In this document: piece by piece, positions 4,153-61,536 of the stretch
Numbering within the stretch: the first letter of the stretch is position 1
How the letters are laid out: the number at the start of each line of letters is the position of its first letter
NCBI GenBank assembly: GCA_018818885.1
Contig: JAHIRB010000018.1
Location: 5,041 to 69,040, forward strand
DNA length: 64,000 nt
Direction: 5' to 3'
Origin: Patescibacteria group bacterium
GTDB lineage: Bacteria; Patescibacteriota; Patescibacteriia; Buchananbacterales; SURF-54
The notes under the pieces: model-generated
Databases searched by the model: none
Seen by the model: the letters and a program-made list of their open reading frames with translations, nothing else
What the model was told of the DNA's origin: nothing
Position numbers and translations under genes: made by a program

Positions 4153-4155
4153 TCT

Positions 4156-4788: not shown

Positions 4789-4863
4789 AAAGACTGGGCA
4801 ATTCATAATTAACTTACCCAGTCAGTTGTGCGAAGCCTAGTAGCTAATAGGTATCCATACAAG

Positions 4864-5124
4864 TTAAAGGTGCGATATTAACAACATTAACCAAGCTGTG
4901 AATACGAAGCGGAATGCCCACATACGATATGATTCTGACTGGGCAATTTCAGCTTTAGCATCTTTGCTGAATTTAATGCCAATTAAGTTGTGATCAGAAA
5001 ATCCTAATGATTCGAGGATTTGAAAGTCACGTGCATTATCCGAATATATTTTGGCTGCAAGCATAGCAAGCAATCCAAGAAATGCAAACATGATTGAGAC
5101 TATCAAATTCCATGTCATTGACAT
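4864..5124 (-). CDS. small 2-TM membrane protein of the SD-bearing small-ORF class
   Basis: 86 aa. AGGGAGGTGA SD 9 nt upstream of the ATG. Hairpin ACTGGGCAA/TTACCCAGT plus T-run terminator downstream on the minus strand (4790-4830). Confidence 0.45.
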   Translation of the reverse strand: MSMTWNLIVSIMFAFLGLLAMLAAKIYSDNARDFQILESLGFSDHNLIGIKFSKDAKAEIAQSESYRMWAFRFVFTAWLMLLISHL

Positions 5125-5251
5125 TATTTGTCACCTCCCTGTTTCGTATAAATTTTTAGTTGTTGGATTTTCTTGATTGAGACATTGATATATTACTATA
5201 TGTGTTAAATAATTTCAAGTCATATATTAGTTATTGATATTATATAGATTT

Positions 5252-7264
5252 ATGGATCAAAAACAACTAGATCAACTTTCCATTAACACAATTCGTTTTT
5301 TAGCAGTAGATGCAGTGCAAAAAGCCAATTCAGGACACCCAGGTTTGCCTATGGGAGCAGCACCAATGGCTTATACTCTTTGGACTAAGTTTTTAAGTCA
5401 TAACCCAAATAATCCCGAGTGGCTAAATCGGGATAGGTTTATTTTGTCTGCTGGGCATGGATCAATGCTGTTATATTCTTTACTCCATTTGACTGGGTAT
5501 GACATACCTTTAAGTCAGATTAAACGATTTCGTCAATGGGATTCTAAAACACCTGGTCATCCTGAATACGAAATTAAATCAGGCATTGAAACTACAACCG
5601 GTCCATTAGGCCAAGGTTTTGGTAATGGAATTGGTATGGCAATAGCGCAAAGGTATTTATCAAACCGATATAACAAGCGTGGATTTAAATTATTTGATTA
5701 TTATATTTACAGTATTGTTTCAGACGGTGATTTAATGGAAGGAGTGTCGTCAGAAACAGCTTCTATGGCTGGTAACTTAAAATTAGGCAAGTTGATATAT
5801 TTATATGATGATAACGACATATCAATTGAAGGATCAACGAACATAACTTTCACAGAAGATGTTGCTACTAGATTTAAGGCATTTGAATGGCACGTTCAAA
5901 AAGTCAATGATGGAAACAATATCAAAGCAATTGAGGGTGCAATAGAAAAAGCAAAAAAGGACAACCGGCCATCCATCATTATTATCAAAACAACAATAGG
6001 TTATGGTAGTCCAAATAAAGCTAATACTGCTTCTGCCCATGGTGAAGCTTTGGGAGAAGAAGAGGTAGAATTAACCAAAGAAAATTTAAACTGGCCAAAG
6101 GAACCAGCATTTTACATTCCAAAAGAAGCTTTAGAACATTTCAGAACAGCAGTAGAAAAAGGTCATAAACAAGAAAAAGAATGGAACGAAATGTTGAAAG
6201 AGTATAAAAAGAAGTATCCTACCTTGGCAAAAGCATTAGTTACTTTAAAACCACAAAGGTTACCAGTTGGTTGGGCAAAAAAACTATCAGAATATTCTGC
6301 AAAAAAAGATCCAGTTGCTACTCGTGTAGTTTCAGGGGAAGTTTTGAATATTTTAGCTAAGTTTTTGCCAAATTTAATTGGAGGTTCTGCAGATCTAGAA
6401 CCATCAAACAAAACTTATCTAAAAGGTAAAGGAGATTTCAGCGCTAAGACAGCTAACAGAGAAACTCACAACTTGCATTTTGGAGTGAGAGAGCACGGCA
6501 TGGCTGCAATTTTAAATGGAATCGCATTGTCAAAACTAGTAATCCCCTATGGCGGAACATTTTTGATATTTTCAGATTACATGCGGCCATCAATTAGGCT
6601 GGCAGCTTTGATGGGGCTACGCGTAGTTTATGTATTTACTCACGATTCTATTGGTTTGGGAGAAGACGGGCCAACACATCAACCAATTGAGCAGTTAATG
6701 GCTTTGCGGGCTATCCCTAATATGACTGTTATACGTCCAGCAGATGCTAACGAAACCGTACAAGCGTGGAAAGTAGCAATAGAAAATACAACAGGCCCAA
6801 CAGCTATATGTCTAACACGTCAAAGTTTACCAATCATTGACCAAAAAACCTACTCGTCAGCCAAGAATTTATCAAAAGGTGCATACATACTTAATCCCAA
6901 AGTAAAAAATCCAGATATTATTCTAATAGCAACAGGATCTGAAGTGCAATTAGCTATGGAAGCATCAGAAAAATTATCCCCCAAAGTCAACGCTAGAGTA
7001 GTAAGCATGCCAAGCTGGGAGTTGTTCGAAAAACAACCACAAAGTTATAAAGATAAAGTTTTACCTCCAGAAGTAAAGTCAAGACTAGCAATTGAAGCAG
7101 GAGTTACGCAGGGTTGGTATAAATATGTTGGCGATAAAGGTGATATTATCGGAATAGATAAATTTGGTGCTTCAGCGCCAGGTAAAGTTGTTATGAAAAA
7201 ATACGGGTTTGGTTTAGCAAATGTTGTAAAAAAAGCCAGAGAGATTATTAAAAAGAATAAATAA
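5252..7264 (+). CDS. tkt: transketolase
   Basis: GHPGLPMGAAPMAYTLW thiamine-diphosphate motif and full-length homology. Start chosen at the internal Met (MDQKQL) by alignment to known Tkt N-termini; the ORF track starts at 5234. Confidence 0.9.
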   Translation: MDQKQLDQLSINTIRFLAVDAVQKANSGHPGLPMGAAPMAYTLWTKFLSHNPNNPEWLNRDRFILSAGHGSMLLYSLLHLTGYDIPLSQIKRFRQWDSKTPGHPEYEIKSGIETTTGPLGQGFGNGIGMAIAQRYLSNRYNKRGFKLFDYYIYSIVSDGDLMEGVSSETASMAGNLKLGKLIYLYDDNDISIEGSTNITFTEDVATRFKAFEWHVQKVNDGNNIKAIEGAIEKAKKDNRPSIIIIKTTIGYGSPNKANTASAHGEALGEEEVELTKENLNWPKEPAFYIPKEALEHFRTAVEKGHKQEKEWNEMLKEYKKKYPTLAKALVTLKPQRLPVGWAKKLSEYSAKKDPVATRVVSGEVLNILAKFLPNLIGGSADLEPSNKTYLKGKGDFSAKTANRETHNLHFGVREHGMAAILNGIALSKLVIPYGGTFLIFSDYMRPSIRLAALMGLRVVYVFTHDSIGLGEDGPTHQPIEQLMALRAIPNMTVIRPADANETVQAWKVAIENTTGPTAICLTRQSLPIIDQKTYSSAKNLSKGAYILNPKVKNPDIILIATGSEVQLAMEASEKLSPKVNARVVSMPSWELFEKQPQSYKDKVLPPEVKSRLAIEAGVTQGWYKYVGDKGDIIGIDKFGASAPGKVVMKKYGFGLANVVKKAREIIKKNK

Positions 7265-7271
7265 ATGAAAA

Positions 7272-7296
7272 AGCCCAAGCGCGAGAGCGTTGGGCT
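7272..7296. terminator. bidirectional hairpin AGCCCAAGCGCGAGAGCGTTGGGCT between tkt and the minus-strand small ORF
   Basis: Perfect 7-bp stem with an A-run upstream and a T-run on the minus strand (rc ...GGGCTTTTTCATTT). Confidence 0.45.
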
Positions 7297-7322
7297 GTCT
7301 TGTCGGATAATTAATTGATTGT

Positions 7323-7541
7323 TTATTGAACGTCGGTAATGATTTGATCTACCTTACCTCTGAATTTGGAGTTTTCGTCCGGTTTATAGTATCTCTCTGC
7401 AACATGTTTGACATAAATGCCAAGGTCATGGACGATAAGTTCAGACAAACATTCCCAGTCTGGAATCTCAATTTCTTCGCTGATTCCCTGGAAAACGAAC
7501 TCATCATTGCGAAATATTGATAGCAATAATCTTATCTTCAT
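7323..7541 (-). CDS. small protein of the SD-bearing small-ORF class
   Basis: 72 aa. GGGAGGGTGG SD 4 nt upstream of the ATG (core GGAGG about 8 nt). Its own terminator is at 7272-7296. Preferred over the overlapping plus-strand ORFs 7326-7520 and 7417-7605, which lack translation signals. Confidence 0.45.
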   Translation of the reverse strand: MKIRLLLSIFRNDEFVFQGISEEIEIPDWECLSELIVHDLGIYVKHVAERYYKPDENSKFRGKVDQIITDVQ

Positions 7542-7615
7542 ATTTCCACCCTCCCTGCAGGACTATGTCAAATTATCTACAACAAGACCCAGTATACTAT
7601 CATAGATACTTAAAA

Positions 7616-8473
7616 ATGTCGTATATGAAACCAAACAATTTAGCAACAAAAATATTCTTAGATTCTGGTGATCCTATAGAAACAAAAAAGACATTAGAAA
7701 TATTAGATTTTTTAGATGGCCAAACTACCAATCCATCATTAATCGCTAAAAATCCTCAAACAGCAGGCAAGAAATTTTCAAAAGAAGAAATTTATGAGTT
7801 TTACAAAAAAGTAGTTAAGGAGATTGCTCTAATGATTCAGCAGGGGTCCGTATCCGTAGAAGTGTATGCAGACAAAAATACTAAAGCTGAAAGTATGATT
7901 GTGCAAGGCAAAGAAATGTTTTCTTGGATTCCAAATGCACACATTAAACTGCCAACAAATACAGAAGGGCTCAAAGCTGCTGAAAGTTTGGTTCAAGATG
8001 GTTTGAGAGTAAATATGACCTTAGTATTCAGTCAGGAGCAAGCTGCAGCTGTCCATGCTGCAACAAAAGGTGCAAATAAAGGTGATGTCTTTGTTTCCCC
8101 TTTTGTGGGTAGGCTAGATGATCGTGGAGAGAATGGCATGGATTTAATCAAAAACATTATTGAAATGTATAAAAAAGCAGATAGTCATGTTGAAGTTTTA
8201 GCAGCAAGTGTAAGAAGTCTAGATCATTTTATGTATTCTTTGCAGTTGGGGTCTGATATTATTACTGCTCCGTTGAAGGTTTATCAAGAGTGGAACGAAA
8301 AAGGTATAAAAATTCCAGATGCAAACTATCAATACTTATTTAAAAACTTAATTCCCATGCCCTATCACGAGCTGGACTTAAGCAAGTCTTGGCAGGAATT
8401 TAATATTAACCATGGTTTAACCGATGCAGGCATAGAACACTTTGCCAAAGATTGGAACAATTTAATTAGATAA
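7616..8473 (+). CDS. tal: transaldolase / fructose-6-phosphate aldolase family
   Basis: FLDSGDPIE and TTNPSLIAK motifs. Start set at ATG 7616 (MSYMKPNN), because the longer ORF from 7517 overlaps the minus-strand small gene. Confidence 0.85.
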   Translation: MSYMKPNNLATKIFLDSGDPIETKKTLEILDFLDGQTTNPSLIAKNPQTAGKKFSKEEIYEFYKKVVKEIALMIQQGSVSVEVYADKNTKAESMIVQGKEMFSWIPNAHIKLPTNTEGLKAAESLVQDGLRVNMTLVFSQEQAAAVHAATKGANKGDVFVSPFVGRLDDRGENGMDLIKNIIEMYKKADSHVEVLAASVRSLDHFMYSLQLGSDIITAPLKVYQEWNEKGIKIPDANYQYLFKNLIPMPYHELDLSKSWQEFNINHGLTDAGIEHFAKDWNNLIR

Positions 8474-8560
8474 TACAAATTACGAATGAATACGAATATA
8501 CGAATCACATAATAAAATTAGCATTTGTATATTCGTATCTAATTAGTAATTCGTAATTTT
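8474..8560. repeat. palindromic intergenic repeat, copy A (AATTACGAAT...AATACGAATATACGAAT / ATTTGTATATTCGTAT...ATTCGTAATT)
   Basis: Imperfect inverted repeat of about 85 bp. The same arms recur at 29689-29770 and 42812-42898. Confidence 0.6.
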
Positions 8561-9301
8561 ATGAAAAACATAATCAATAAGATGAAACCAAGAATTAAGC
8601 AGATAGTTTCTAGGAGAGATACAAGTTTTTCCTGGCGGATTTTTAAAATTATGGGAGAGTTTGTGACTGGTTTTGAGTTTTTACAGCAATATGGATTAGC
8701 TGCCACATTTTTTGGCACTGCGCGTTGCAGAAAAGAAACCAAAATATACAAAGAAGCAACAAAACTTGCCAAGGAACTTGCTAAAATGGGTTTTGCTATA
8801 ATCACTGGAGGTGGCCCTGGTATTATGGAGGCTGCTAATAAAGGCGCAGTAGAAGCTAAAGGAGATTCAGTGGGTTTAAATATCCAACTCCCAAATGAAC
8901 AACGTATCAATCCGTATGTCAAAGAATCTAGAGCTTTTCACTATTTTTTTACTAGAAAAGTTATGCTTTCATACGCCTCGGAAGTCTATATATTTTTTCC
9001 TGGCGGTTTTGGTACCCTTGACGAGCTTTATGAAATTTTAACTTTAATCCAGACACGAAAAATATGCAAGATTCCAGTTATTCTCGTGGATAAAGATTTT
9101 TGGCAGCCTTTGGTGGAGTGGATGTACGGCAGGCTTTATAGGCAAGATAAAGCAATTGATAAAGAAGATTTAAATTTGTTTAAGGTTGTTGATAATGCAG
9201 ACGAGGCTTTAAAATTAATTAAAAAAGTAATTAAGAGCAAGAAGCTGGTTGCTTCCGAAACCCCAATTGAATACGTTGCTGGTGAAAAAATTCAAAAATA
9301 A
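8561..9301 (+). CDS. LOG-family (TIGR00730) Rossmann-fold nucleotide-binding protein
   Basis: ITGGGPGIMEAANKGA and PGGFGTLDE motifs of cytokinin riboside 5'-monophosphate phosphoribohydrolase-like proteins. Confidence 0.75.
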   Translation: MKNIINKMKPRIKQIVSRRDTSFSWRIFKIMGEFVTGFEFLQQYGLAATFFGTARCRKETKIYKEATKLAKELAKMGFAIITGGGPGIMEAANKGAVEAKGDSVGLNIQLPNEQRINPYVKESRAFHYFFTRKVMLSYASEVYIFFPGGFGTLDELYEILTLIQTRKICKIPVILVDKDFWQPLVEWMYGRLYRQDKAIDKEDLNLFKVVDNADEALKLIKKVIKSKKLVASETPIEYVAGEKIQK

Positions 9302-9302
9302 A

Positions 9303-10613
9303 ATGCCAAATATAGAATTCAATTACAAAAACATCAGCTTTATCAAAGAGGATAAAATAAAAAATTCTGCAGAAAGTTTAAAGACCTATGTAGACCATCT
9401 TAAAATTGTTGCAGAGGCAAACAACTATGAATCAGACGAAGCTTCTATTTTTGCACCTTTTGATTTAGCTGCACAAAAAGAAATAAAGAGTGCGGTAGAA
9501 CAAACAAGTAGCAATATTTTAAAATATATTATTGTAGTAGGAATTGGCGGTTCAAACTTAGGTACTAAAGCAGTTTACGAAGCATTATTTGGAAATTTAG
9601 ATTCATTAAAAAAGAGACAACCTAAAATAATTTTTATAGATACAGTTGCTCCAAGTTTAATGGCAAATGTAAAATTAATTTTGGATGAAATTAAAACCAC
9701 AGAAGAAGTATTAATAAATCTCATCACAAAATCAGGCACTAATACCGAACCGATAGTTAACTTTGAGGGATTATATGCTTATCTGATAAAGCGTTTTCCA
9801 AACATTAACGAAAGAATAGTAGTTACAACAAGCGGTGGGACAAAACTATGGCAAAAATCTCATGAACTGGGTCTTACTATTTTAGACCACCCTACAGTTG
9901 GTGGCAGATATTCAGTTTTCACAGCTGTTGGTTTATTTCCGTTAGCTGTTGTTGGTGTTAATATTAATTCTTTACTAAAGGGTGCACAAGAAATGAGAGA
10001 TTTATGCATATCGTCGGACTTTGATGAAAATGTTGCATTGATTTCTGCAGTTTTGATACATCAACATTATCAAAAAGGCAAAAATATTTTAAACAACTTC
10101 TTTTTTAATCCAGAGCTTGAATCAGTCGGCAAGTGGTATCGCCAACTCATAGGTGAAAGTATTGGTAAAGAAAAAGATACGCGTGGAAACGAAGTCAACG
10201 CAGGCATCACACCCATTGTTTCCATTGGTTCAACAGATCTTCATTCCATGGCGCAACTATATTTAGGTGGACCAGATGATAAATTTACAAATTTTGTATA
10301 TGCTACAGACAAATCAGAGGCAGCTGTTCCAACACAGCAACTATTTCCAGGAGTAGTTGAAGGCCTAGAGGGTAAAGATTTAAAAATAATAATGAACGCA
10401 ATAATAGAGGGAGTTAAAAAAGCCTATTACAAAAAACAAATACCATACATGGAAATAAATATGCCAGAAATTTCTGCTTATACAATAGGACAATTTTTAC
10501 AGTTTAAGATGATGGAGATGATGTATTTGGCTAAGTTGATGGGAGTAAATGCATTCGATCAACCTAATGTAGAAGAATACAAAGAAGAGACTAGAAAACT
10601 CCTTGAATCTTAG
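9303..10613 (+). CDS. pgi: glucose-6-phosphate isomerase
   Basis: VVGIGGSNLGTKAV (SIS domain) and GGRYSVFTAVG motifs. Start set at ATG 9303, immediately after the LOG stop. Confidence 0.85.
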   Translation: MPNIEFNYKNISFIKEDKIKNSAESLKTYVDHLKIVAEANNYESDEASIFAPFDLAAQKEIKSAVEQTSSNILKYIIVVGIGGSNLGTKAVYEALFGNLDSLKKRQPKIIFIDTVAPSLMANVKLILDEIKTTEEVLINLITKSGTNTEPIVNFEGLYAYLIKRFPNINERIVVTTSGGTKLWQKSHELGLTILDHPTVGGRYSVFTAVGLFPLAVVGVNINSLLKGAQEMRDLCISSDFDENVALISAVLIHQHYQKGKNILNNFFFNPELESVGKWYRQLIGESIGKEKDTRGNEVNAGITPIVSIGSTDLHSMAQLYLGGPDDKFTNFVYATDKSEAAVPTQQLFPGVVEGLEGKDLKIIMNAIIEGVKKAYYKKQIPYMEINMPEISAYTIGQFLQFKMMEMMYLAKLMGVNAFDQPNVEEYKEETRKLLES

Positions 10614-12595: not shown

Positions 12596-13321
12596 TTATT
12601 TAATATTATTCCAAAGATGCTGAATCATTGTTTTGTGCGTATCAGCAATATCTTTATCTTCAATAATCACACCCATTAGGTTATTTAAAGAAACCATAGT
12701 TGTTTTGTTATCAAATACTAAGATATCTGTAGCTATCTTAAAACTACGAGGTAAAAACTTAGTTTCACTTAGTCCCGTTCTGTATTTTTTTTGTGCATAT
12801 TCTCTGGCTTTTTTACTTTCCTGCATTAAATCATAAATAATACCTCCCTGACGATTCAAGATATTAAATAGATGTCTGTTTTCTTTCTCTGTAAAAACAT
12901 CAGAATAATTATCAAATGAAAACATAGACCAAATTTCTTTTGATCTAAAGACTTCCTCATACATTTTAGTAAGTCTATCTTTGCCTTCATAAAATCTTAC
13001 TTTAGGTTGTTTTGAGCTTTTTTGGTATATAGATTCTAAGTCTGGCAGAATATCCTTAATTTTTTCCTTTTTTTCTTCTAAATACTCAATTAGCTTACTG
13101 GGCTTTTCAGCTTTATAGTGTGTAATAGTCCCAGAGGGAATAGATATTAAAAGATTCTTTTTTAATAATTCTTCAATAATAAGATAAGTGGTGGGTCTTT
13201 TTAGACCCGCCCTTTTTGATAATTGGGTGATAGAGCATGTGCCTAAGGTTAAAGCAGCCAAATAAACGTTGGTTTCCTTATCGTTTAAGCCAAATTGTTG
13301 AAGGATAGTTTCTTTTTCCAT
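12596..13321 (-). CDS. TrmB-family transcriptional regulator (paralog 1)
   Basis: N-terminal winged HTH (NVYLAALTLGTCSITQLSKRAGLKRPTTYLIIEELLKKNLL) typical of TrmB. 241 aa. Confidence 0.7.
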   Translation of the reverse strand: MEKETILQQFGLNDKETNVYLAALTLGTCSITQLSKRAGLKRPTTYLIIEELLKKNLLISIPSGTITHYKAEKPSKLIEYLEEKKEKIKDILPDLESIYQKSSKQPKVRFYEGKDRLTKMYEEVFRSKEIWSMFSFDNYSDVFTEKENRHLFNILNRQGGIIYDLMQESKKAREYAQKKYRTGLSETKFLPRSFKIATDILVFDNKTTMVSLNNLMGVIIEDKDIADTHKTMIQHLWNNIK

Positions 13322-14592: not shown

Positions 14593-15978
14593 ATGAATTT
14601 AATATTACTAAGTTTGGCTGTAATCGTCATTCTTTATTTCACAATTAACCCTTCAAAGAAATGGAAAGTGGCTTTTAATATGGCCACTGTTTCCATTGCA
14701 GCTTTAATTGTTTTATTATTGTTGAAAGTTATTGATATCGAAACAATCATTTCTGGCATCATCGGCACTAATGGAATTGAGCCTTGGAAGGTTTTAGTTA
14801 TATTTTTTAGCGTTGCTTACGTAAGCGTGAGTACAGATGTAACTGGTATTTTTGATTATATAGCATATAGGTTAGTAAGATTAGCAAACGGTGACGGTAT
14901 TAAGCTTTTTTTGTTTTTTTATTGCTTTGCAGGATTCTTAAGTATATTTACTTCTAATGATATTGTTATTTTAACTTTGACTCCGATCATTTTTTATTTA
15001 GGCAAACATGCAAAGATAAATATTATTCCATTATTGTTTGCGGAGTTTTTTGCTGCCAACACCCTTAGTATGCTGTTGTATATTGATAATCCTACAAACA
15101 TTATAATGGTTAATGCGCTAGGGATCGGGTTTGTAGAATATTTGTCAGTCATGTGGCTTCCAACCTTGGTTGCAGCAATTGTTAACTATATATTGTTATA
15201 TTTAATATTTAGAAAACAAATAACTAAAAAATATAATTTAAATGAGAATTCTGAGTTTACAGTAAGAAATAAATTAGACGCCACAATAAGCAGTACATTG
15301 ATGATCGCAATGTTTATTTTTTTAGTATTATCAGACAGTATGGAATTTTCTATTTGGAAAATAACATCTATTTTTGCTATGTTGTTTATAATAGAAGATA
15401 TTTTATTTAGTTTATATTATCAAAGAAAATCACGACAATTATCAGCACCACAACTTGATAAACGAGAAGTCGTGTTAGGTATACCGAAAGAAAAAAATGA
15501 ATTTTGGTTAGCAATAAAGCGTGTACCTTGGAAAATATTACCATTTGTAACAGTTTTTTTTATTTTGGTTTATCATTTAAGTCACATAGGTGTTATTGAA
15601 AGTATAAGTGAGTGGTTATCTGCTGGATCAAATTCTCTTCTGTCGAGTATTGGCTTAAATGGTGTGGTAGCTTTCATCAGTGCGAACATAATTAACAATC
15701 AGCCAATGGCAATTTTGTATTCTTATGTATTTACAAATGCAAAATTAACATTACAAGGGATTGAATTGCGGGGGGCAGTTTATGCAGTTATAATTGCTAG
15801 TAATTTAGCTGCAAATTTTACAATAATAGGTGCTTTGGCAGGCCTAATGTGGAAGAAAATATTAAAAGACAAAGGAGTTCAAATATCATATTTTGATTTT
15901 ATAAAAAAAGGTATTGTAATAACGCCGTTGGTTTTTGTAGCAACATTGGCTACACTCTATGTAATACTTCAGTTCTAA
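14593..15978 (+). CDS. ArsB/NhaD-superfamily anion permease (arsenite efflux pump ArsB-like)
   Basis: 461 aa polytopic protein. CFAGFLSIFTSNDIVILTLTPII...AANTLSMLLYIDNPTNIIMVN aligns to ArsB SNDATALLMTPI...AANVGS...PIGHPTNLVMV. Confidence 0.75.
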   Translation: MNLILLSLAVIVILYFTINPSKKWKVAFNMATVSIAALIVLLLLKVIDIETIISGIIGTNGIEPWKVLVIFFSVAYVSVSTDVTGIFDYIAYRLVRLANGDGIKLFLFFYCFAGFLSIFTSNDIVILTLTPIIFYLGKHAKINIIPLLFAEFFAANTLSMLLYIDNPTNIIMVNALGIGFVEYLSVMWLPTLVAAIVNYILLYLIFRKQITKKYNLNENSEFTVRNKLDATISSTLMIAMFIFLVLSDSMEFSIWKITSIFAMLFIIEDILFSLYYQRKSRQLSAPQLDKREVVLGIPKEKNEFWLAIKRVPWKILPFVTVFFILVYHLSHIGVIESISEWLSAGSNSLLSSIGLNGVVAFISANIINNQPMAILYSYVFTNAKLTLQGIELRGAVYAVIIASNLAANFTIIGALAGLMWKKILKDKGVQISYFDFIKKGIVITPLVFVATLATLYVILQF

Positions 15979-22247: not shown

Positions 22248-22271
22248 AGGCGACATTGGCCAATGTCGCCT
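22248..22271. repeat. perfect 24-bp palindrome AGGCGACATT-GGCC-AATGTCGCCT
   Basis: Perfect dyad. The same 10-bp arms recur at 59576-59599 with a CGCG centre. Confidence 0.5.
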
Positions 22272-22349
22272 GTTGATTTATATCCTTGATTTTTATCATA
22301 CAATAAAGTAAAATATATTCATACTTTATAATAATTAATTTAAAAAAAT

Positions 22350-31122: not shown

Positions 31123-31863
31123 ATGGAAGCAAAAAAAATAAAACAAATTATCAAAGATAAATATGGCAAAATTGCTAATTCGAATGCCGGTTGTGGCTGC
31201 CAATGCAGATGTAATGATAGCGAAGATATTTCGAAAGAGATTGGATATAGCCAAGAAGAAATTAACAATGTGCCAGAAGCAAACCTAGGCCTTGGTTGCG
31301 GTAATCCCATAGCACATAGTCGAATAAAAGAAGGTGATGTAGTGCTAGATTTGGGAAGTGGAGCAGGATTTGATTCTTTTTTGGCAGCAAAAAAAGTAGG
31401 TCCAGCCGGAAAAGTCATCGGAGTCGATATGACACAAGAAATGCTAAATAAAGCTAAAGCGAACGCCAAAAAGTATAATTATGATAACGTAGAGTTTAGG
31501 CTTGGTGATATCGAAGATCTGTCAGTTGAAGATAATATGATAGATGTTATCATTACTAACTGCGTAATTAATTTAGCACCAGACAAACTAAAAGTTTTCA
31601 AAGAAGCTTACAGAGTATTAAAAAAAGGTGGCAGAATGTATATTTCTGATATTGTGTTACTTAAGCAATTAACCCAAGAACAACGAGATAACGAAGAGCT
31701 GGTAACGGGTTGTATTGGGGGTGCAATGCTAAAAGATGAATATATAGAAACAATTAAAAAGTCAGGCTTTGAAGTCAACGTATTAAACGAAGATAAGGAT
31801 ATTAGCAAAAAACAATATCAAGGTTTACCGCTTGTGAGTTTATCCATAGAAGCAATCAAGTAA
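31123..31863 (+). CDS. arsM: arsenite S-adenosylmethionine methyltransferase
   Basis: Three conserved Cys (CGCQC...C) and a class-I SAM motif. LGCGNP...VLDLGSGAGFD...GVDMT...NCVINLAPDK matches the ArsM consensus. Confidence 0.85.
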   Translation: MEAKKIKQIIKDKYGKIANSNAGCGCQCRCNDSEDISKEIGYSQEEINNVPEANLGLGCGNPIAHSRIKEGDVVLDLGSGAGFDSFLAAKKVGPAGKVIGVDMTQEMLNKAKANAKKYNYDNVEFRLGDIEDLSVEDNMIDVIITNCVINLAPDKLKVFKEAYRVLKKGGRMYISDIVLLKQLTQEQRDNEELVTGCIGGAMLKDEYIETIKKSGFEVNVLNEDKDISKKQYQGLPLVSLSIEAIK

Positions 31864-31875
31864 AGCAAGATAACA

Positions 31876-31907
31876 AAAAAACTTCTCAGTAAATGAGAGG
31901 TTTTTTG
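31876..31907 (+). terminator. intrinsic terminator CTCTCA-GTAAA-TGAGAG plus T6
   Basis: A-run, 6-bp stem, then GGTTTTTTG. Confidence 0.5.
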
Positions 31908-31984
31908 AATGCCCTTATTTTTGTAAAATCTACGGGAAGAAAGACTTTTTATTAGTATAGCAATTATTGAATATAATGAAAATT

Positions 31985-32752
31985 TTATTTATAAGGCTTT
32001 GATAATTTCCAAATCGAATCAAATTGTGTTTTCATCATTTCAGCCAGTTCAGCACTTTCTACTAGAAAACCAAAATTTTCTTTACTTGAAGAAATAAATC
32101 GTACACTATTACCATAAATTGCATAGCCGAGCGAGAAATCTACTTCGGCTGGAGCAATTTTTGCATCTCTTTTGGATTCGGTTCCTGTTTTAGAATAGGG
32201 ATATTTTTTTATTGAAGAAATTTCGTTTTGCGGCCAAATTACTTTTATATTAATGTTTCGTTTTACTCTTTCTTTATGAAAAGATGTTAAGAATTCACCT
32301 GAGAGTAGTTTATTTAATTTTATAACAGGCCAGTATGCATAGACAGTTATATCTCTAAACAATAACATATCTTTCATCATCTGCTGTAATTCTTTCTTCC
32401 CCTCATAAATTTGCATTCTTGGTTTAGAAGATGTTTTTTGAGATAAATATTCTGATTGTAATATGTCCAAAGCAATTTTGGCTTTTTTTAATTCTTTTTC
32501 TTTTTCTTCAATTAGTAAATGTAGTTTTTCTGGTGGACAAGCAGCAAACATCTTTACACCACCTTTTTGCGTTTCAAAAACTATACCAATTTCGATTAGC
32601 CTTTCTAACAAATCATAAACTGAAGTTCTGCTAATTTCAGATTGTTTAGCTAGTTGAGTAGCAGACATTTGCCCGCCGTAAAAAAGTTTTTGGTATAAAT
32701 CAAGTTCAATTTTTCTTAAGTTGAATATTGAGAGTAGAGTTGCTATTTTCAT
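31985..32752 (-). CDS. TrmB-family transcriptional regulator (paralog 2)
   Basis: N-terminal wHTH LDLYQKLFYGGQMSATQLAKQSEISRTSVYDLLERLIEIGIV. 255 aa. Convergent with arsM and divergent from the small Cys-rich ORFs. Confidence 0.7.
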   Translation of the reverse strand: MKIATLLSIFNLRKIELDLYQKLFYGGQMSATQLAKQSEISRTSVYDLLERLIEIGIVFETQKGGVKMFAACPPEKLHLLIEEKEKELKKAKIALDILQSEYLSQKTSSKPRMQIYEGKKELQQMMKDMLLFRDITVYAYWPVIKLNKLLSGEFLTSFHKERVKRNINIKVIWPQNEISSIKKYPYSKTGTESKRDAKIAPAEVDFSLGYAIYGNSVRFISSSKENFGFLVESAELAEMMKTQFDSIWKLSKPYK

Positions 32753-32763
32753 ATATTTTAATG

Positions 32764-32786
32764 ATGTCGTGGAATTGTCACGACAT
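32764..32786. promoter_or_regulatory. 8-bp-arm palindrome ATGTCGTG-N7-CACGACAT in the divergent promoter region (candidate operator)
   Basis: Perfect dyad between TrmB paralog 2 and ORF 32870. Confidence 0.3.
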
Positions 32787-32788
32787 AG

Positions 32789-32817
32789 TTTACAATATCA
32801 CAATTAAACATTAAAGT
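32789..32817 (+). promoter_or_regulatory. candidate promoter TTTACA-17-TAAAGT
   Basis: TTTACA at 32789-32794, TAAAGT at 32812-32817. Confidence 0.3.
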
Positions 32818-32869
32818 CAAGAGTTGAACGTTGACAATTGGTTGAGTGGTAAAGGGAGGTATGTATATT

Positions 32870-33130
32870 ATGTACAAAACAATAGGGGCTTCATTATTAG
32901 CATTTCAAATGGGTATGGTGTTTAATGTCGAACTGTTTCATAAAAAGACAGGAGTGTGGCTTGATAGTCTTGAACAAATCGATGAATACCGATCCGGACT
33001 GAAAGTTGAGGAAAGATGTTACTTCGACGTATTCGTAATCCAGAAGAGAGCTCAAATTGATGTGTTAGGACTTGAAGAAGACGAAGTGAAAAAAGTTTTT
33101 CAAGTCATAAAGGCTTGTTTTTCAAAATAA
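32870..33130 (+). CDS. small protein of the SD-bearing small-ORF class
   Basis: GGGAGG SD at 32854-32859. The ATG at 32870 has the best spacing; the ORF track's longer 32846 start was rejected. About 86 aa. Confidence 0.4.
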   Translation: MYKTIGASLLAFQMGMVFNVELFHKKTGVWLDSLEQIDEYRSGLKVEERCYFDVFVIQKRAQIDVLGLEEDEVKKVFQVIKACFSK

Positions 33131-33181
33131 CTTCTCAAATAATTGTTTTAGGACGAAGTGAATGAAAATGGAGATGATAAA

Positions 33182-33610
33182 ATGCCAAAGAAGGAGTCAA
33201 AGTTTAAGGACTGGGGCGTACAACCACATCAGGGTATGAGACACAATTGGGACGTAACTAGTTGCCCACATTGTAATCATGATTTTAATCAATATAGGAT
33301 GTTGTATTGTAGATTCATAGTAGGATTCACTACGAAAGAAGAATATAGAAGGCCTACATACGATGGGACAAAAATTGTAGGATTTTATGCAGAGGGAGCT
33401 GTTATTTTAGAATGTCCAAAATGTTTTGAGCATTCATGGATTCACAGTTGTGGCACTACCAGGCAGTTATTTGATGCGACAGAAGATGACGATAATTTCC
33501 TTTTAGTCCCTGGAGCAAAGGAGGCTTTTTTGAGAAGTGTAAAGAAAAAGTCGAAAAAGAAACCGACCAAAAAAAAGCTAAAGAAAAAATTGGTTAAGAA
33601 GAAGAATTAA
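33182..33610 (+). CDS. zinc-ribbon small protein with a Lys-rich tail (SD-bearing small-ORF class)
   Basis: CPHCNH...CPKC four-Cys ribbon and a C-terminal KKKSKKKPTKKKLKKKLVKKK. GGAGA SD 7 nt before ATG 33182; a GTG start at 33158 is also possible. Confidence 0.45.
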   Translation: MPKKESKFKDWGVQPHQGMRHNWDVTSCPHCNHDFNQYRMLYCRFIVGFTTKEEYRRPTYDGTKIVGFYAEGAVILECPKCFEHSWIHSCGTTRQLFDATEDDDNFLLVPGAKEAFLRSVKKKSKKKPTKKKLKKKLVKKKN

Positions 33611-33619
33611 ATCTATATA

Positions 33620-33651
33620 CCGCCTGAAAAGTAATATCAGGCGGTTTTTTA
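33620..33651 (+). terminator. intrinsic terminator CCGCCTG-AAAAGTAATAT-CAGGCGG plus T6
   Basis: Perfect 7-bp GC stem and TTTTTT. Confidence 0.55.
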
Positions 33652-33662
33652 TATCCAAAAAA

Positions 33663-33687
33663 CTGTCCAATTAGGACAGCTCTTTTT
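33663..33687 (+). terminator. second tandem terminator CTGTCC-AATTA-GGACAG plus CTCTTTTT
   Basis: 6-bp stem followed by a T-run. Confidence 0.45.
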
Positions 33688-33693
33688 ATCTAA

Positions 33694-33835
33694 GATGCGC
33701 GCAGAGGGACCCCCTTCGATTTACTCAGGGTAAGCGAACCCCCGCCTGTCCTCCGAATCCACCTCCGGCGGAGTAGGAGGAACCGTTTGCTTAACCCCGT
33801 ACAATGCTCGCGTGAGCTCGCATATACGGGGCAAG
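33694..33835. other. GC-rich hairpin cluster adjacent to tRNA-Lys
   Basis: Hairpins CTCCGGCGGAG, TCCTCC..GGAGGA and CCCCGTA...TACGGGG. Shares short GC modules with the other GC islands in the window. Confidence 0.3.
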
Positions 33836-33858
33836 GAGTCAACAATTTTTCATTTCTT

Positions 33859-33932
33859 TGCGCCCAGAGGGATTTGAACCCCCGACCATTTGCTTAAGAG
33901 GCAACTGCTCTACCAGCCTGAGCTATGGGCGC
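33859..33932 (-). tRNA. tRNA-Lys (anticodon CTT)
   Basis: rc GCGCCCA-TA-GCTCAGGCTGGTAGAGC-A-GTTGC-CTCTTAA-GCAAA-TGGTC-GGGGG-TTCAAAT-CCCTC-TGGGCGC-A. Folded by hand. Confidence 0.75.
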
Positions 33933-34009
33933 ATAATTAATGTGATTAATAGTTATGTAGATATTTTGGGTTGAGTGTACAAATGATAAACGATGAAAAA
34001 TAAAATAAT

Positions 34010-34038
34010 GCGGGTCTACCAGGCTGAGCTATGGGCGC
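34010..34038 (-). pseudogene. truncated 5' fragment of tRNA-Lys (acceptor plus D-arm only)
   Basis: rc GCGCCCATAGCTCAGCCTGGTAGACCCGC, about 90% identical to the 5' 27 nt of tRNA-Lys and lying 5'-upstream of it. Confidence 0.4.
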
Positions 34039-34064
34039 ATATTTAAGAGGACTATTATTATAAG

Positions 34065-56545: not shown

Positions 56546-58102
56546 TTAATTTTGTATTACTTCTACTTTTACTTCCTCTACATCATTTATATCTATTTGC
56601 ACGGCTGGCATTGGTAAGGGTTCAATTCTTGAGCCATCGTCTTCAGATTCAAATTCGACCAATATTTCTGTAATTAATGGCACCACAACATTTTTCTTAT
56701 TTAAGTTTGGCACTACACGTCCATCGACACCATCAATATTAGGCCTGCTAATTATCGGGAAGATTAATGCAGGAACTAACAGCTCATCATTTTGTTCGTT
56801 CTGATAGACCCATTTTCTAAAATAACCCAAGCTTGGCTGTCCAACTTCAATTTCTAATGTATCTTGAGCATTGCCATAGTTATAAGAAAAAATACCGCCT
56901 TTTTCCACCCACTTCATTACAAGATTTGCATCAGTAATTGCAGGGTAGGAAGAACTTTGGTAATTTTGTGTGGTTAAACTTGTAACATTGTTAACTTTTT
57001 TTTCTTTAACATCTACTGCTATATTAAGCCCTATTGGATAACCATTGCCTTCGAATACCCCCTGCCCATTAATTTCTAACGGATATGTAACCATTAAAGT
57101 ATCTGGTACATAAAAGCTAGCTTTATCGGTTGCTTGTTCATAGAATATTTTCCAGTTATTATCTATAAACGGCTGACCATAATTAGCTAAGCTTATTTTT
57201 GCTGCATTCAAGAAATCACTAGCAATTTTTATTATCACATCATCTGCTGGCAGATCATTTATGTTTATACGTTGCTGGTCGTAGCACTTTTGGTCGTTAC
57301 ATCTAACTTGCGGCCATTGCTTATGATTTTTAAAGATAGTTAAGGCGCCTTCGTCTAAATTAGCATTAATAGTGTAGCCATAAGGTTTGTTTTGGGAAAA
57401 ACTTATGTTTTGAACCTGACTGTTAGAAAATCCAGATAGATCGGCTAGGCCTAAGTTGAAACTTTGTAGTAAGCTAGTTAAGCTGTCAGCGCTTGTATTA
57501 CCTTTAACTTTTTTTAAAACATCAAGAGTTTGTTGATCTAAAGTAATTGGCTCGCCTTTATAGACATACTTGTAATTAATTGCTTCATAATAAGGTGGAA
57601 TAAGATTTCCAACTTCTGATGTAGGCATTCCTCCTCCTCCGCCACTCTGAGTGCGGGGCTGGGCTGCGCCGATACCATCAGTTGAGCCGAGTTGTTCACT
57701 ACCACCTGCTAAACTGCCAAAAGCGCTGTCTGTAACTTTAGATATTTGTAATCCAGTCAAAAATGTTTGAGTAAATTCACCTTTTGATTTGTTTAAGGTA
57801 TAGGCCACTGGAATCATGATAACTATTGCTATCACAGCACCAACTGCCGCGTAATTTAGTTTTCTCATAGTCAATGAATTAATAATTAGATCGATGACTG
57901 AAAATTGATTTTTGGTTTTTATTTCAGTTGCTTTATCAATTAACTCCGCGCGAAGTTTTTTGGCAAAGCTGGCATCGAATGTAGTGTTTGGCTTTGTAGC
58001 CAAAATATTTTTAATGATAATTTTTAGTTCGTTTTCGTATTTTTTAAAGCTTGAATCAATCTGATAAAGTTCATTTAAAATTTGTTGTAGATCATTTTTC
58101 AT
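56546..58102 (-). CDS. putative anti-sigma factor: N-terminal cytoplasmic segment, one TM helix, large extracytoplasmic domain
   Basis: 518 aa. 4-bp overlap with the upstream ECF sigma gene. TM at about residues 80-100. Assignment is by position and topology only. Confidence 0.45.
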   Translation of the reverse strand: MKNDLQQILNELYQIDSSFKKYENELKIIIKNILATKPNTTFDASFAKKLRAELIDKATEIKTKNQFSVIDLIINSLTMRKLNYAAVGAVIAIVIMIPVAYTLNKSKGEFTQTFLTGLQISKVTDSAFGSLAGGSEQLGSTDGIGAAQPRTQSGGGGGMPTSEVGNLIPPYYEAINYKYVYKGEPITLDQQTLDVLKKVKGNTSADSLTSLLQSFNLGLADLSGFSNSQVQNISFSQNKPYGYTINANLDEGALTIFKNHKQWPQVRCNDQKCYDQQRININDLPADDVIIKIASDFLNAAKISLANYGQPFIDNNWKIFYEQATDKASFYVPDTLMVTYPLEINGQGVFEGNGYPIGLNIAVDVKEKKVNNVTSLTTQNYQSSSYPAITDANLVMKWVEKGGIFSYNYGNAQDTLEIEVGQPSLGYFRKWVYQNEQNDELLVPALIFPIISRPNIDGVDGRVVPNLNKKNVVVPLITEILVEFESEDDGSRIEPLPMPAVQIDINDVEEVKVEVIQN

Positions 58103-58668
58103 ATTATGTTGGTAATATTTATAACGAAAAATAAGATAATTAGTGACATTTCTTCACGCAATTTTCTAATACTTCGGGAAAATATCATTTTAGAGTTAGC
58201 AACAGAGTTTTTGGTAATTTCAGAAATTTCTTGATAGGACAGTTGATCCCAAAGTCTCATCACTACAATTTCTTTCTGAAGGGGTTTTAATTTATTGAGA
58301 TGTTTTGAAACCTCTTGTAATTTTTGTTTAACATCGATATCACGTTCAATGTCGCTATCGGTTGATAAGTCCCATATAGCATCAATATCTATAGCATTTT
58401 TTTTAGAACGATAATAGTCTATTACATTATTTCTTGCGATTCTATATAGCCACGAAGAAAAACTACCTTTAGTAGAATCGTATTTGTTGATATTTTGCAG
58501 TGCTTTAAAAAAAGTCTGCGAGGTTAAATCTTCTGCTGTTTCTTTGTGAGAAGTTTTATAAAAGATAAAACTATAGATTTTTTTGATATAAACGTCGTAA
58601 AGCTGAGCGAATTGTTCTAATTCCCCCGCCTGACATCTTGTAATGATTGTGGATTCAGCGTTTTCCAT
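58099..58668 (-). CDS. ECF-type RNA polymerase sigma-70 family factor
   Basis: Region 2 (YSFIFYKT...WLYRIARNNVIDYYR) and region 4 HTH (LSYQEISEITKNSVANSKMIFSRSIRKLRE). 189 aa. Confidence 0.75.
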   Translation of the reverse strand: MENAESTIITRCQAGELEQFAQLYDVYIKKIYSFIFYKTSHKETAEDLTSQTFFKALQNINKYDSTKGSFSSWLYRIARNNVIDYYRSKKNAIDIDAIWDLSTDSDIERDIDVKQKLQEVSKHLNKLKPLQKEIVVMRLWDQLSYQEISEITKNSVANSKMIFSRSIRKLREEMSLIILFFVINITNII

Positions 58669-58835
58669 GTTAAACCGAACTTTAAGTCAATTGAGCTATT
58701 TTGTTTAGATATTCCTAAGAATTTAAGTATTTTTGTAAACATATTTCCTTTAGTTATTTAATTTTTCTGTAATATATAACGAAACTAAAGGTGAAAGGTA
58801 ACATATTAAGTATATCCTGCCTGCGCCAGACAAGC

Positions 58836-58866
58836 AAAAAAATCACCTATACAGTGATTTTTTTGT
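58836..58866. terminator. bidirectional terminator A-run, ATCAC-CTATACA-GTGAT, T-run
   Basis: Symmetric A/T runs flank a 5-bp stem. Confidence 0.45.
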
Positions 58867-58875
58867 ATGTTTAGA

Positions 58876-59184
58876 TTAAGCCCCAGTAGCATTCAATATA
58901 TTAGCAACTACAAAGTTAGTAATTGCTAACGCCGAAAGGATTATGACCAGTCCGATCACACCAGCAGCAACAACTTTTTGGCCAGAACCGCTTTTATCTG
59001 CATTGCCACCTGCTGTCATCATCATAACACCGCCAGCAATAATTCCAACAATAACTAGTATTGCTAAAAATCCCAAGGCTACATTAACAATTGTCATTAC
59101 CGATTCTCTCAATTCTCTTGTTCCTAAACCTGTAGAAGAAAGATAACCCATCCCAGTATCGAGTGCATAAACTGGCAAGGTCAC
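58876..59184 (-). CDS. small 2-TM membrane protein, possibly pilin-like (VirB2/TrbC-type)
   Basis: 102 aa with two long Gly/Ala/Val/Ile-rich helices flanking GNADKSGSGQK. The family call is tentative. Confidence 0.35.
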   Translation of the reverse strand: MTLPVYALDTGMGYLSSTGLGTRELRESVMTIVNVALGFLAILVIVGIIAGGVMMMTAGGNADKSGSGQKVVAAGVIGLVIILSALAITNFVVANILNATGA

Positions 59185-59334
59185 AAATAGAAAAATTGAA
59201 AGTAAGCAAAGTACTGTAATTAATGTTTTTATATATTTTTAAATTATTTTTTCTTCTATTTTGGCTTTGTTTTCTAAACCCCTGAATTTGTAGTTAAATA
59301 GCATTTAGCCAGTTATTATGTTTGACATAATGGT

Positions 59335-59562
59335 TTATTCTTTTTTCTTCTTCTTAAAGATTGTTATATAAAGATGTAGAGCTAATAAAATTAAGAAAGG
59401 ATAAAGTATCCAGTCGTGAAGTTTAAAAGACAAAGCTTTGGTTAAAACACCAAAAGTTATTTTTTCCATCACACGATAGTAAGTAATGCCTAGGCCGGAA
59501 ATTAAATAAATTACAATTGCTACTAGTAGTCCGTAGTGGACAGATTTTTTGAAAGTTTTCAT
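59335..59562 (-). CDS. small 2-TM membrane protein
   Basis: Start set at the internal Met (MKTFKK), because the ORF's N-terminal 24 codons lie inside the GC-rich palindrome. Confidence 0.35.
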   Translation of the reverse strand: MKTFKKSVHYGLLVAIVIYLISGLGITYYRVMEKITFGVLTKALSFKLHDWILYPFLILLALHLYITIFKKKKKE

Positions 59563-59575
59563 AGATTCTCTCCGT

Positions 59576-59697
59576 AGGCGACATTCGCGAATGTCGCCTG
59601 CCGCTGTTAGATTTAATTTTTTCGTAGGCGACACGCCCGCTTCGACAAGCCCGCCTAGCCGTCGAGGCTGGCGAAGCGAGGCGAGTCGACGTGTCGC
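59576..59697. repeat. GC-rich palindrome cluster: AGGCGACATT-CGCG-AATGTCGCCT, then GCGACACG...CGTGTCGC enclosing GCCCGCTTCGAC and GAGGCGAG modules
   Basis: The first palindrome shares its 10-bp arms with 22248-22271. GCCCGCTTCGAC also occurs at 21868-21879. Confidence 0.5.
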
Positions 59698-59710
59698 TTT
59701 CCGGTATTTA

Positions 59711-60394: not shown

Positions 60395-60477
60395 GGAGTT
60401 AGTTGATTAGAGTTAATTGTAGTAATTTGAGTAATTATAGTTGCATACTATAATTAACTACAATAACTATAATCGCT

Positions 60478-60861: not shown

Positions 60862-60904
60862 ATGATTATTCCTTTTGTCTTTTCGACCGATGTTAAATAT
60901 TATA

Positions 60905-60985
60905 CCTGGAGACCAGCCAGAGGCTGGTGTTCGCCAGAGGCGAATCTGCCTTTGGCATGACGCCTCTGGCGCAGATCTCACATCA
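60905..60985. repeat. GC-rich hairpin cluster (CCAGCCAGAGGCTGG, TTCGCCAGAGGCGAA, CGCCTCTGGCG)
   Basis: Three hairpins with AGAG-type loops. The CCGCCAGAGGCGG variant occurs at 16075-16089. Confidence 0.4.
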
Positions 60986-61056
60986 TACTTTATTGAAGGG
61001 TGTGGGATTTCTCCATTTCGTTCGTTACGCTCACTTCAGTCGAAATGACAAACAGG

Positions 61057-61530: not shown

Positions 61531-61536
61531 ATGTAT

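Follow-up and report, generated by a model that had tools for sequence, protein, structure and literature searches.

Layout of the locus

The 64-kb stretch of DNA analysed here (hereafter the window; part of the 79-kb contig JAHIRB010000018.1 of a metagenome-assembled genome, or MAG, named 'Patescibacteria group bacterium') has a G+C content of 34% and carries the NCBI locus tags KKA15_02530 and KKA15_02535. The subject of this study is the first of these, a gene for a TrmB-family regulator on the minus strand, together with the short region that separates it from two divergently transcribed small open reading frames (ORFs), orf86 and znr. Within that region lies a 21-bp pseudo-palindromic element, which is conserved upstream of the regulator's homologues and which probably serves the regulator as its own operator. 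The divergent arrangement described in the earlier note on this DNA, with the TrmB-like gene on one side and ORFs 32870-33130 and 33182-33610 (plus strand) on the other, agrees with the list of ORFs. The features of the locus, in window coordinates, are as follows.

31123-31863, plus strand: arsM, arsenite S-adenosylmethionine methyltransferase, 246 aa (NCBIfam NF008823)
31876-31906, both strands: bidirectional intrinsic terminator where arsM and the TrmB-like gene converge (hairpin fold)
31985-32752, minus strand: TrmB-family regulator of TrmBL2-like architecture, 255 aa, KKA15_02530 (Pfam PF01978)
32765-32785, minus strand: candidate operator, TGTCGTGACAATTCCACGACA in the minus-strand reading (footprinting across loci and position weight matrix)
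32792-32820, minus strand: predicted promoter of the TrmB-like gene (consensus scan)
32789-32817, plus strand: putative mirror-image promoter for orf86-znr (consensus scan)
32826-32837, minus strand: conserved 12-mer TTGTCAACGTTC (comparison of loci)
32870-33130, plus strand: orf86, 86 residues, first gene of the divergent operon (ORF with a Shine-Dalgarno sequence)
33182-33610, plus strand: znr, zinc-ribbon protein, 142 aa, with a C-terminal poly-Lys tail (phmmer family)
33619-33651, plus strand: intrinsic terminator of the orf86-znr operon (stem and U6)
33663-33679, both strands: second hairpin, with T-runs on both strands (fold and reading of both strands)

For comparison, 80 loci around homologues of the regulator were gathered, six of them from genome contigs and the majority from a metagenome scan. 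Usable upstream sequence was available for 65 homologous loci; promoter counts refer to 55 distinct loci and the columns of the operator to 52 distinct sequences. Loci are cited by number (L): L001-L003 are three contigs that represent copies of the source genome itself, and L005 carries an 85%-identical orthologue.

The regulator

The regulator matches Pfam PF01978 over residues 7-75 with 48.4 bits (E 8.7e-13; the cut-off is 25.6), which places it in the TrmB family. In its AlphaFold2 model (pLDDT 87.8) the winged helix-turn-helix (wHTH; residues 1-72) is followed by a coiled-coil helix of 32 residues (74-105) and by a PLD-like alpha/beta domain (112-250). The best Foldseek matches are structures of TrmBL2 (5bpd, 5bpi, 5box and 5bqt; E 3e-14 to 2e-12), followed by TrmB (3qph); the overall TM-score to TrmBL2 is low (0.44), because the domain arrangement differs. 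The C-terminal domain matches both PLD-like nucleases (Nuc, 1byr) and the N-terminal subdomain of the sugar-binding domain of TrmB (2f5t, 156 columns). Three residues of the recognition helix, R42, Y46 and D47, are invariant in 28 homologues, and Y50 and D51 are the DNA-recognition residues of TrmB (PMC4158304). The Tyr-Asp pair and the coiled-coil helix are thus both present, the equivalence of positions being taken from the Pfam and fold alignments rather than from a residue-by-residue superposition.

The protein is not a sugar-sensing TrmB or TrmBL1, as the NCBIfam models for TrmB, TrmBL1 and halobacterial TrmB reach only 15-30 bits against cut-offs of 500-650. With 255 aa it is shorter than these proteins (338-341 aa), the sugar-binding subdomain is absent, and at E<=0.1 it has no match to the effector domain PF11495 or to NF041141, the TrmBL2 equivalog model of NCBIfam (cut-off 530 bits). 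Judged by the Pfam match and the modelled structure, it is a member of the TrmB family with the domain organisation of TrmBL2, in a bacterial lineage, the Candidate Phyla Radiation (CPR). The signal that reaches its PLD-like domain is probably neither a sugar bound in the manner of TrmB nor arsenite or a thiol oxidant.

More than 150 homologues with 50-85% identity were found, and all organism names given for them are Patescibacteria or CPR, except for one 'Bathyarchaeota' MAG. Five loci (L008, L012, L056, L060 and L078) contain two or three paralogues of the family within 10 kb, each with its own variant of the operator. This points to an expansion of the family, as a major class of regulator, in these small genomes.

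The window itself holds a further TrmB-like gene, at 12596-13321 on the minus strand. The earlier note had treated the two as a pair of paralogs; the existence of this paralog 1 stands, but it has no BLAST-level similarity to the regulator studied here (paralog 2). Paralog 1 is divergent from two unknown ORFs and a permease of the ArsB/CitMHS superfamily (14593-15978), while the pentose-phosphate genes rpiB, rpe, tkt, tal and pgi lie on its other side. No operator of the TGTCG type was found in its upstream region.

A conserved element upstream of the regulator gene

The perfect palindrome that the earlier note had proposed as a candidate operator, ATGTCGTG-N7-CACGACAT, was found at 32764-32786. 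Shuffled sequences show that about one G+C-containing palindrome of this kind, with 8-bp arms, is to be expected per window. The footprinting evidence for this one is strong, as its 21-bp core (32765-32785) recurs in 62 of the 65 homologous loci, as 52 distinct sequences, at a fixed place relative to the regulator promoter. The form common to the family is TGTCGTGACAnTTCCACRACA, which can also be written TGTCGTGACA-N3-CCACRACA. Its orientation is constant. It follows the extended -10 box of the TrmB-like gene and precedes the ATG, at a distance of 1-16 nt in most loci and most commonly of 3 nt.

The conservation within the element is uneven. The symmetric core TGTnGT-N9-ACnACA is complementary in 46-52 of the 52 sequences, which suits a dimeric wHTH protein. 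Two further pairs of positions are mismatched in most or many members: 12 of the 52 sequences have complementary bases at pair 3-17 and 24 of the 52 at pair 6-14, without compensatory changes. The bases between the arms (A7, C/A8, A9 and C13) are conserved as sequence. Conserved mismatches that are not compensated, together with a conserved 'loop', fit a DNA site bound by a protein but do not fit an RNA hairpin. The perfect palindrome of the window is itself a minority variant, with G at position 17.

The element is also exclusive to its place. With a position weight matrix (PWM) of the 52 instances, a single site is detected in the window, at 32765-32785, with a score of 35.4; the next best site scores 4.2, and the maximum in shuffled sequence is 18.6. 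No further copy was found in the window by a pattern search allowing three mismatches or by the PWM scan, and the other promoters of the window are without the element. The related loci, about 490 kb in all, have sites scoring >=14 only directly upstream of TrmB-family genes and in the same orientation. The element is kept in very different gene contexts and down to protein identities of about 27-34% (L074 and L078). Such a tie to one gene family, with no occurrence outside it, is the signature of an autoregulatory operator, and the presence of one site per gene and none elsewhere is to be expected of a private operator and speaks against a global factor.

Two overlapping predicted promoters

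The upstream regions of the family share the architecture TTGAC(A/T)nTA - N11 - (TG)nTAtTGT - AAAywn - TGTCGTGACAnTTCC/GACRACA - 1 to 16 nt - ATG. In the window, the predicted promoter of the TrmB-like gene consists of the -35 box TTGACT (32820-32815), a 17-bp spacer, a TG extension and the -10 box TATTGT (32797-32792). In 50 of the 55 distinct loci TTGAC precedes the -10 box at a distance of exactly 17 bp, and the -10 columns are conserved in 48-50 of 52. The operator follows the extended -10 box after about 6 bp and thus covers the predicted start and the short 5' untranslated region (UTR) of the regulator gene.

On the plus strand, the -35 box TTTACA (32789-32794), a 17-bp spacer and the -10 box TAAAGT (32812-32817) form a candidate promoter for orf86-znr, so that the two promoters overlap hexamer for hexamer in the shared sequence TTGACnnTA-N11-TAtTGTAAA. 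The bases that create the second promoter are conserved: after TTGAC, T at +7 is found in 50 of 50 and A at +8 in 41 of 50, and AAA follows the -10 box in 43-51 of 52. As the promoter of the TrmB-like gene does not need these bases, which generate TAnnGT and TTTACA on the other strand, we infer a mirror-symmetric, bidirectional promoter, whose divergent half is presumably functional. The operator would lie 3 bp upstream of the divergent -35 box and be centred near -49 with respect to the predicted start. Nearly every locus has a divergent gene, which begins at a distance of 45-100 bp from the site.

Two other characteristics of the region were recorded. Of the 55 distinct loci, 27 contain, with <=3 mismatches, a 12-mer with the family consensus TTGTCAAAGAAC (in the window TTGTCAACGTTC). 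It precedes the -35 box of the TrmB-like gene by 4-19 nt, where the divergent transcript is predicted to begin, and loci with divergent ABC-transporter genes lack it. The 12-mer was considered as the -35 box of a further divergent promoter and rejected, as the sequence 17 bp downstream of it is a Shine-Dalgarno sequence and not a -10 box in several loci. Genes of the regulator family are themselves generally without a Shine-Dalgarno sequence (for example at 3972-3995 in L012 and at 32753-32764 in the window), and their commonest arrangement is a CA-rich 5' UTR of about 24 nt (CCACAACAAU-AUG).

The divergent genes

The earlier note had described both small ORFs as rich in Cys and as preceded by GGAGG-type Shine-Dalgarno sequences, and each description fits one of the two. 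The GGAGG is found before orf86 (32855-32859, 10 nt before the ATG), but znr has GGAG (33170-33173); conversely, znr has six Cys, but orf86 only two in 86 residues. No homologue of orf86 other than itself was detected in 5.8 billion protein clusters, and none in the 80 related loci by phmmer --max or tblastn; neither Pfam, NCBIfam, PHROG nor PADLOC gave a match. As far as its sequence can tell, orf86 is an orphan and a putative ORF.

The znr product gave only itself in a word-indexed search, and exhaustive phmmer gave 40 representative clusters, which share the pattern WG..P...CPxC...VGF...ECPxC...H. Within the family G48, C78 and H88 are invariant, and W11, C28, C31 and C81 nearly so. The AlphaFold2 model is confident (pLDDT 86.3, pTM 0.76) and has no significant Foldseek match in PDB or BFVD. 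Homologues of znr are divergent from a TrmB homologue in about ten of the loci collected through the regulator, and the one in L005 also has a poly-Lys tail. When contigs were instead collected through znr, the regulator and the operator were found again in L087, L088 and L089, and the operator in L094. Hence znr appears to represent a small uncharacterised CPR family that recurs divergently from the regulator.

Other partners recur as well. In about 18 loci the regulator is divergent from an ABC transporter of the NMT1/THI5 type, and in about nine a set consisting of DUF4870, pyruvate kinase and phosphoenolpyruvate (PEP) synthase lies downstream of it; a sulfotransferase, a B12-radical-SAM enzyme and small membrane proteins are further recurrent partners.

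Behind znr, the earlier note had placed two tandem terminators. Both hairpins after 33610 exist. The first (33619-33645) has a 9-bp GC-rich stem followed by U6, at -15.1 kcal/mol (z = -5.0). The second (33663-33679; -9 kcal/mol), however, more probably ends the minus-strand transcript of tRNA-Arg, tRNA-Lys and a GC-rich RNA, and would be a back-up terminator for the plus strand.

arsM and the question of arsenic

The identity of arsM is well supported, with 313.8 bits against the cut-off of 263 of NCBIfam NF008823 'arsenite methyltransferase', and its best solved relatives are the algal ArsM structures 5evj and 4fr0 (PDB). The SAM-binding motif DLGSGAG is present, and this motif and the Cys residues of the protein align to CmArsM and CrArsM. 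The three catalytic Cys that had been claimed for it were located as C59 (GCGNP), C147 (NCVINL) and C197 (GCIGGA) in blocks aligned to CmArsM, where we take the corresponding residues to be Cys72, Cys174 and Cys224. A cluster of N-terminal Cys (C24, C26, C28 and C30) aligns with the solved ArsMs, presumably at the place of Cys44 in CmArsM. The C-terminal domain of the algal enzymes is missing. The gene has its own promoter-like site and its own terminator, and is without a Shine-Dalgarno sequence. As described earlier, it converges on the TrmB-like gene, and the two are separated by the bidirectional hairpin at 31876-31906, with 13 bp and U6 (-14.5 kcal/mol and z = -3.75 on the plus strand; -10.7 kcal/mol on the minus strand).

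From this neighbourhood the earlier note had drawn the proposal that the TrmB-like protein took the place of ArsR, sensing arsenite or thiol stress and controlling arsM together with the Cys-containing small ORFs. Several facts can be cited for it. The arsM gene does adjoin that of the regulator; Pfam gave no match to ArsR, ArsC or Acr3 in the window, as had been claimed for ArsR, nor on the 79-kb contig as a whole; a permease of the ArsB superfamily lies near paralog 1; and OxsR, a single-domain TrmB-family protein of Haloferax, is reported to be a thiol-based regulator. The linkage on which the proposal depends is nevertheless not conserved. By tblastn over all fetched loci, arsM lies beside the regulator in none of about 77 others, the 85%-identical orthologue included (its downstream genes are those for a patatin, DUF2238, NUDIX and HAD proteins), and only the copies of the same genome have it. 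In addition, arsM is convergent and separately terminated, and the PWM scan of the window found no operator upstream of it.

The regulator does not provide a suitable sensor either. It has a single Cys (C72). Of 28 aligned homologues, 13 have Gln in that column and 17 lack Cys altogether; as the family has no or one Cys and none that is conserved, a sensor based on an As(III)-thiolate or a redox-active Cys is implausible. ArsR/SmtB proteins resemble the regulator in having a winged-helix DNA-binding domain and a palindromic operator, but the regulator lacks their cluster of two or three Cys for As(III) and any match to PF01022, and its linkage to ars genes is not conserved. The permease at 14593-15978 was rejected as an ArsB pump (NF011980, 165.7 bits against a cut-off of 457; TIGR00935, 142.8 against 415), and Pfam CitMHS (153.6 bits) fits it better than ArsB (111.8 bits); by these scores its membership is limited to the ArsB/NhaD/CitMHS superfamily. 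Finally, the regulator of relatives occurs in contexts of carbon metabolism and transport. Sugar-metabolism surroundings, which the earlier note had named as an argument against its proposal, were found in part: relatives have the regulator beside pyruvate kinase and PEP synthase or beside an ABC transporter, and the pentose-phosphate genes adjoin paralog 1. With the linkage not conserved and no Cys site in the regulator, the arsenic reading is unsupported, and we consider it very improbable; arsM appears to be an independent chance neighbour outside the regulatory cassette. The tempting inference that a TrmB-like protein took over from ArsR is thereby removed.

The window contains a more obvious module for thiol or oxidative stress than the TrmB locus. 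It is a cluster for the repair of oxidised proteins at 56546-62385 (minus strand), whose genes encode an ECF-type (extracytoplasmic function) sigma factor and its 518-aa partner, a molybdopterin oxidoreductase resembling MsrP together with a cytochrome b subunit, MsrB and MsrA.

Other features of the surroundings

Housekeeping genes surround the locus: those for RNase Y, YmdB, HU, tRNA-Lys, tRNA-Arg, a PilT-like ATPase, RNase III, NusB and GyrA. On the minus strand, tRNA-Arg and tRNA-Lys are immediately followed by an element of about 160 nt (33690-33850) with 55-62% G+C against 34% for the genome; it folds to -64.6 kcal/mol (z = -2.4) and is followed by the hairpin 33679-33663 and a U-run. 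With a 200-nt query, Rfam gave no match up to E 10, and the related loci contain no copy. The element is a candidate for an unknown structured RNA. Between the tRNA-Arg and tRNA-Lys genes there is a direct repeat, 32 nt long, of the 5' half of tRNA-Lys (34015-34046 against 33909-33940; 94% identity). This repeat explains a weak YrlA-like Rfam match, and it may be the remnant of a duplication or integration event.

Further away, a perfect palindrome rich in G+C (AGGCGACATT...) occurs in two copies 37 kb apart (22248-22275 and 59576-59603), which could represent a terminator present twice or a small repeat element. On the same contig, past the high-coordinate end of the window, L091 contains in its positions 1-9900 a large serine recombinase, a pair formed by a helix-turn-helix (HTH) protein and an ImmA/IrrE-type peptidase, a C39 peptidase and a gene like those for type IV secretion system (T4SS) pilins, which together look like a mobile element integrated at the end of the contig. 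For the regulator cassette itself, an origin in a defence system or a phage was rejected, as PADLOC and PHROGs gave only weak HTH similarity (Csa3, 19 bits).

Proposed mechanism and alternatives

We consider it probable that a dimer of the TrmB-like protein binds a private operator and represses its own promoter, and that the operator also serves the divergent operon of small proteins. The reading of autorepression follows from the conservation, the position and the uniqueness of the site, and the adjacent TrmB-like protein would be its binder. A dimeric TrmB-family protein would recognise the single 21-bp pseudo-palindromic operator, and, as this lies over the start and 5' UTR of the regulator gene, occupancy would block RNA polymerase and result in negative autoregulation. 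The bound regulator would also set the expression of orf86-znr through the site that abuts the divergent -35 box. Here we lean towards a switch, in which binding shuts the promoter of the regulator and frees or stimulates the overlapping divergent promoter; the geometry would be that of LysR-type regulators. Besides the geometry, the preference for a switch relies on a rule of the TrmB family, by which a palindromic site serves repression when it lies at or after the start and activation when it lies upstream (PMC4158304). Autoregulation has also been reported or proposed for some members of the family (PMC4158304). The transcription starts (near 32785 on the minus strand and near 32824 on the plus strand), the second promoter and the sign of regulation are inferred.

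Several observations weigh against this interpretation. TrmBL2, which has the closest fold, is a chromatin protein that is largely unspecific for sequence. The element is asymmetric, with C at position 3 and A at position 17 in most copies, and extra constraints may therefore act on it, such as those of the initial transcribed sequence or of translation initiation without a Shine-Dalgarno sequence. The residues of the recognition helix do not co-vary with the sub-types of the operator. One of the contigs collected through znr (L094) has the site next to a truncated ORF that cannot be recognised as TrmB. The sequence, moreover, does not reveal whether the divergent operon is activated or repressed.

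Some of these observations would be accommodated if the element were bound by another factor, or were a feature of the core promoter or of the initial transcribed region, and the TrmB-like protein were an unspecific nucleoid protein of the TrmBL2 type. The closest fold is indeed that of a chromatin protein (PMC4158304), the asymmetric element stands in a fixed register with the -10 box, and the HTH does not follow the variants of the operator. We nevertheless judge such an explanation improbable, as the element occurs exclusively upstream of one gene family, across diverse contexts and down to about 27-34% protein identity, and the other promoters of the window lack it; the strict co-inheritance of gene and site is a hallmark of autoregulation. 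Equally improbable is that the inverted repeat acts in RNA, as a 5' stem-loop of the TrmB-like mRNA which governs its stability or translation. The position of the element would allow it, since it lies in the predicted 5' UTR, 1-16 nt from the AUG in most loci, where a Shine-Dalgarno sequence is absent, and the copy in the window folds to -10 kcal/mol (z = -3.2). The pattern of conservation, on the other hand, is that of sequence, 'loop' included, rather than of pairing: two of the seven stem positions (3-17 and 6-14) are conserved mismatches in most members, and compensatory changes are absent.

The alternative closest to autorepression with a switch retains the operator and its binder and differs in the sign of divergent control. 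Both overlapping promoters would be repressed, in the manner of TetR/tetA, and a ligand would relieve them. Of all the alternatives it is the foremost and has to be taken seriously, if it is somewhat doubtful. The site is only 3 bp from the divergent -35 box, the promoters overlap completely, and most local divergent repressor systems work in this way. However, a site near -49 and off the -35 hexamer is more typical of activators, and the rule of the TrmB family ties upstream sites to activation (PMC4158304); neither argument is decisive.

Relation to known systems and significance

The regulator resembles several known systems, none of them in all respects. LysR- and TetR-type cassettes can be compared with it in function only; in these the regulator is divergent from its target and a shared operator region covers the regulator's promoter and abuts that of the target; here the fold is unrelated, the promoters overlap hexamer for hexamer, and one 21-bp site is detectable. 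The closest structural relative is TrmBL2 (Pyrococcus furiosus PF0496 and Thermococcus kodakarensis TK0471; 5bpd, the best Foldseek match at E 3e-14), which has 264 aa against 255 and likewise combines a wHTH, a coiled-coil helix and a PLD-like domain without the sugar-binding subdomain of about 70 residues (PMC4158304). The identity in the Foldseek alignments is only 17-19%, and the NCBIfam model of TrmBL2 is not matched. In contrast to TrmBL2, which belongs to archaea and shows little specificity in binding coding and intergenic DNA, the regulator belongs to a bacterial (CPR) host with promoters of the sigma-70 type, and its gene has a single specific conserved site. One conserved site per gene argues for sequence-specific binding by the regulator.

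With the archaeal sugar-sensing regulators (TrmB, TrmBL1, Tgr and VNG1451C) the protein shares the PF01978 wHTH, the Tyr-Asp pair and a palindromic operator, and it would share with TrmB-type regulators the dependence of repression or activation on the position of the site and, as reported or suggested for part of the family, autoregulation (PMC4158304). TrmB itself is part of the cluster for the trehalose/maltose ABC transporter, which it represses (PMC4158304), and about 18 CPR loci have the regulator divergent from a binding-protein-dependent ABC transporter, although the binding protein of the CPR transporter is NMT1/THI5-like and not MalE-like. The regulator differs further in lacking PF11495 and the C-terminal sugar-binding subdomain, and its operator TGTCGTG-N7-CACRACA is unlike the characterised TrmB motifs TACT-N3-AGTA, TATCAC-N5-GTGATA and TACT-N7-8-GAGTA.

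As a type, the cassette seems to be an ordinary local autoregulator, compact and self-contained in the way that is typical of the Patescibacteria. What is new is the defined operator, the apparently mirror-symmetric promoter and the link to an uncharacterised zinc-ribbon family. A full-text search of the literature found no paper that joins TrmB with Patescibacteria or 'Candidate Phyla Radiation', papers under other names of CPR groups not being ruled out by it.

A bolder interpretation can be put forward only tentatively. The cassette might be a portable toggle found throughout the CPR, which consists of a TrmBL2-like regulator, one operator and a mirror promoter whose hexamers do double duty: RNA polymerase could sit in only one orientation, and the regulator would choose between its own synthesis and that of an interchangeable cargo. 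The cargo would comprise the NMT1-type ABC transporter, the membrane proteins, the sulfotransferase with the radical-SAM enzyme, and the zinc-ribbon family, in which znr would be an undescribed fold with a poly-Lys tail that binds nucleic acid.

The Patescibacteria (CPR) are uncultivated and have few regulators, and the locus supplies for them a precise and testable pair of regulator and operator. The PWM of the 21-bp motif, based on 52 distinct instances, and the defined architecture of the promoter can be used for annotating many CPR genomes. The znr family is pointed out as a recurrent target with a confident predicted structure and no structural relative found in PDB or BFVD. If the toggle is real, it would be the first regulator-operator pair defined by sequence for the uncultivated Patescibacteria, and it would represent a bacterial case of the archaeal rule 'downstream represses, upstream activates', realised on one site.

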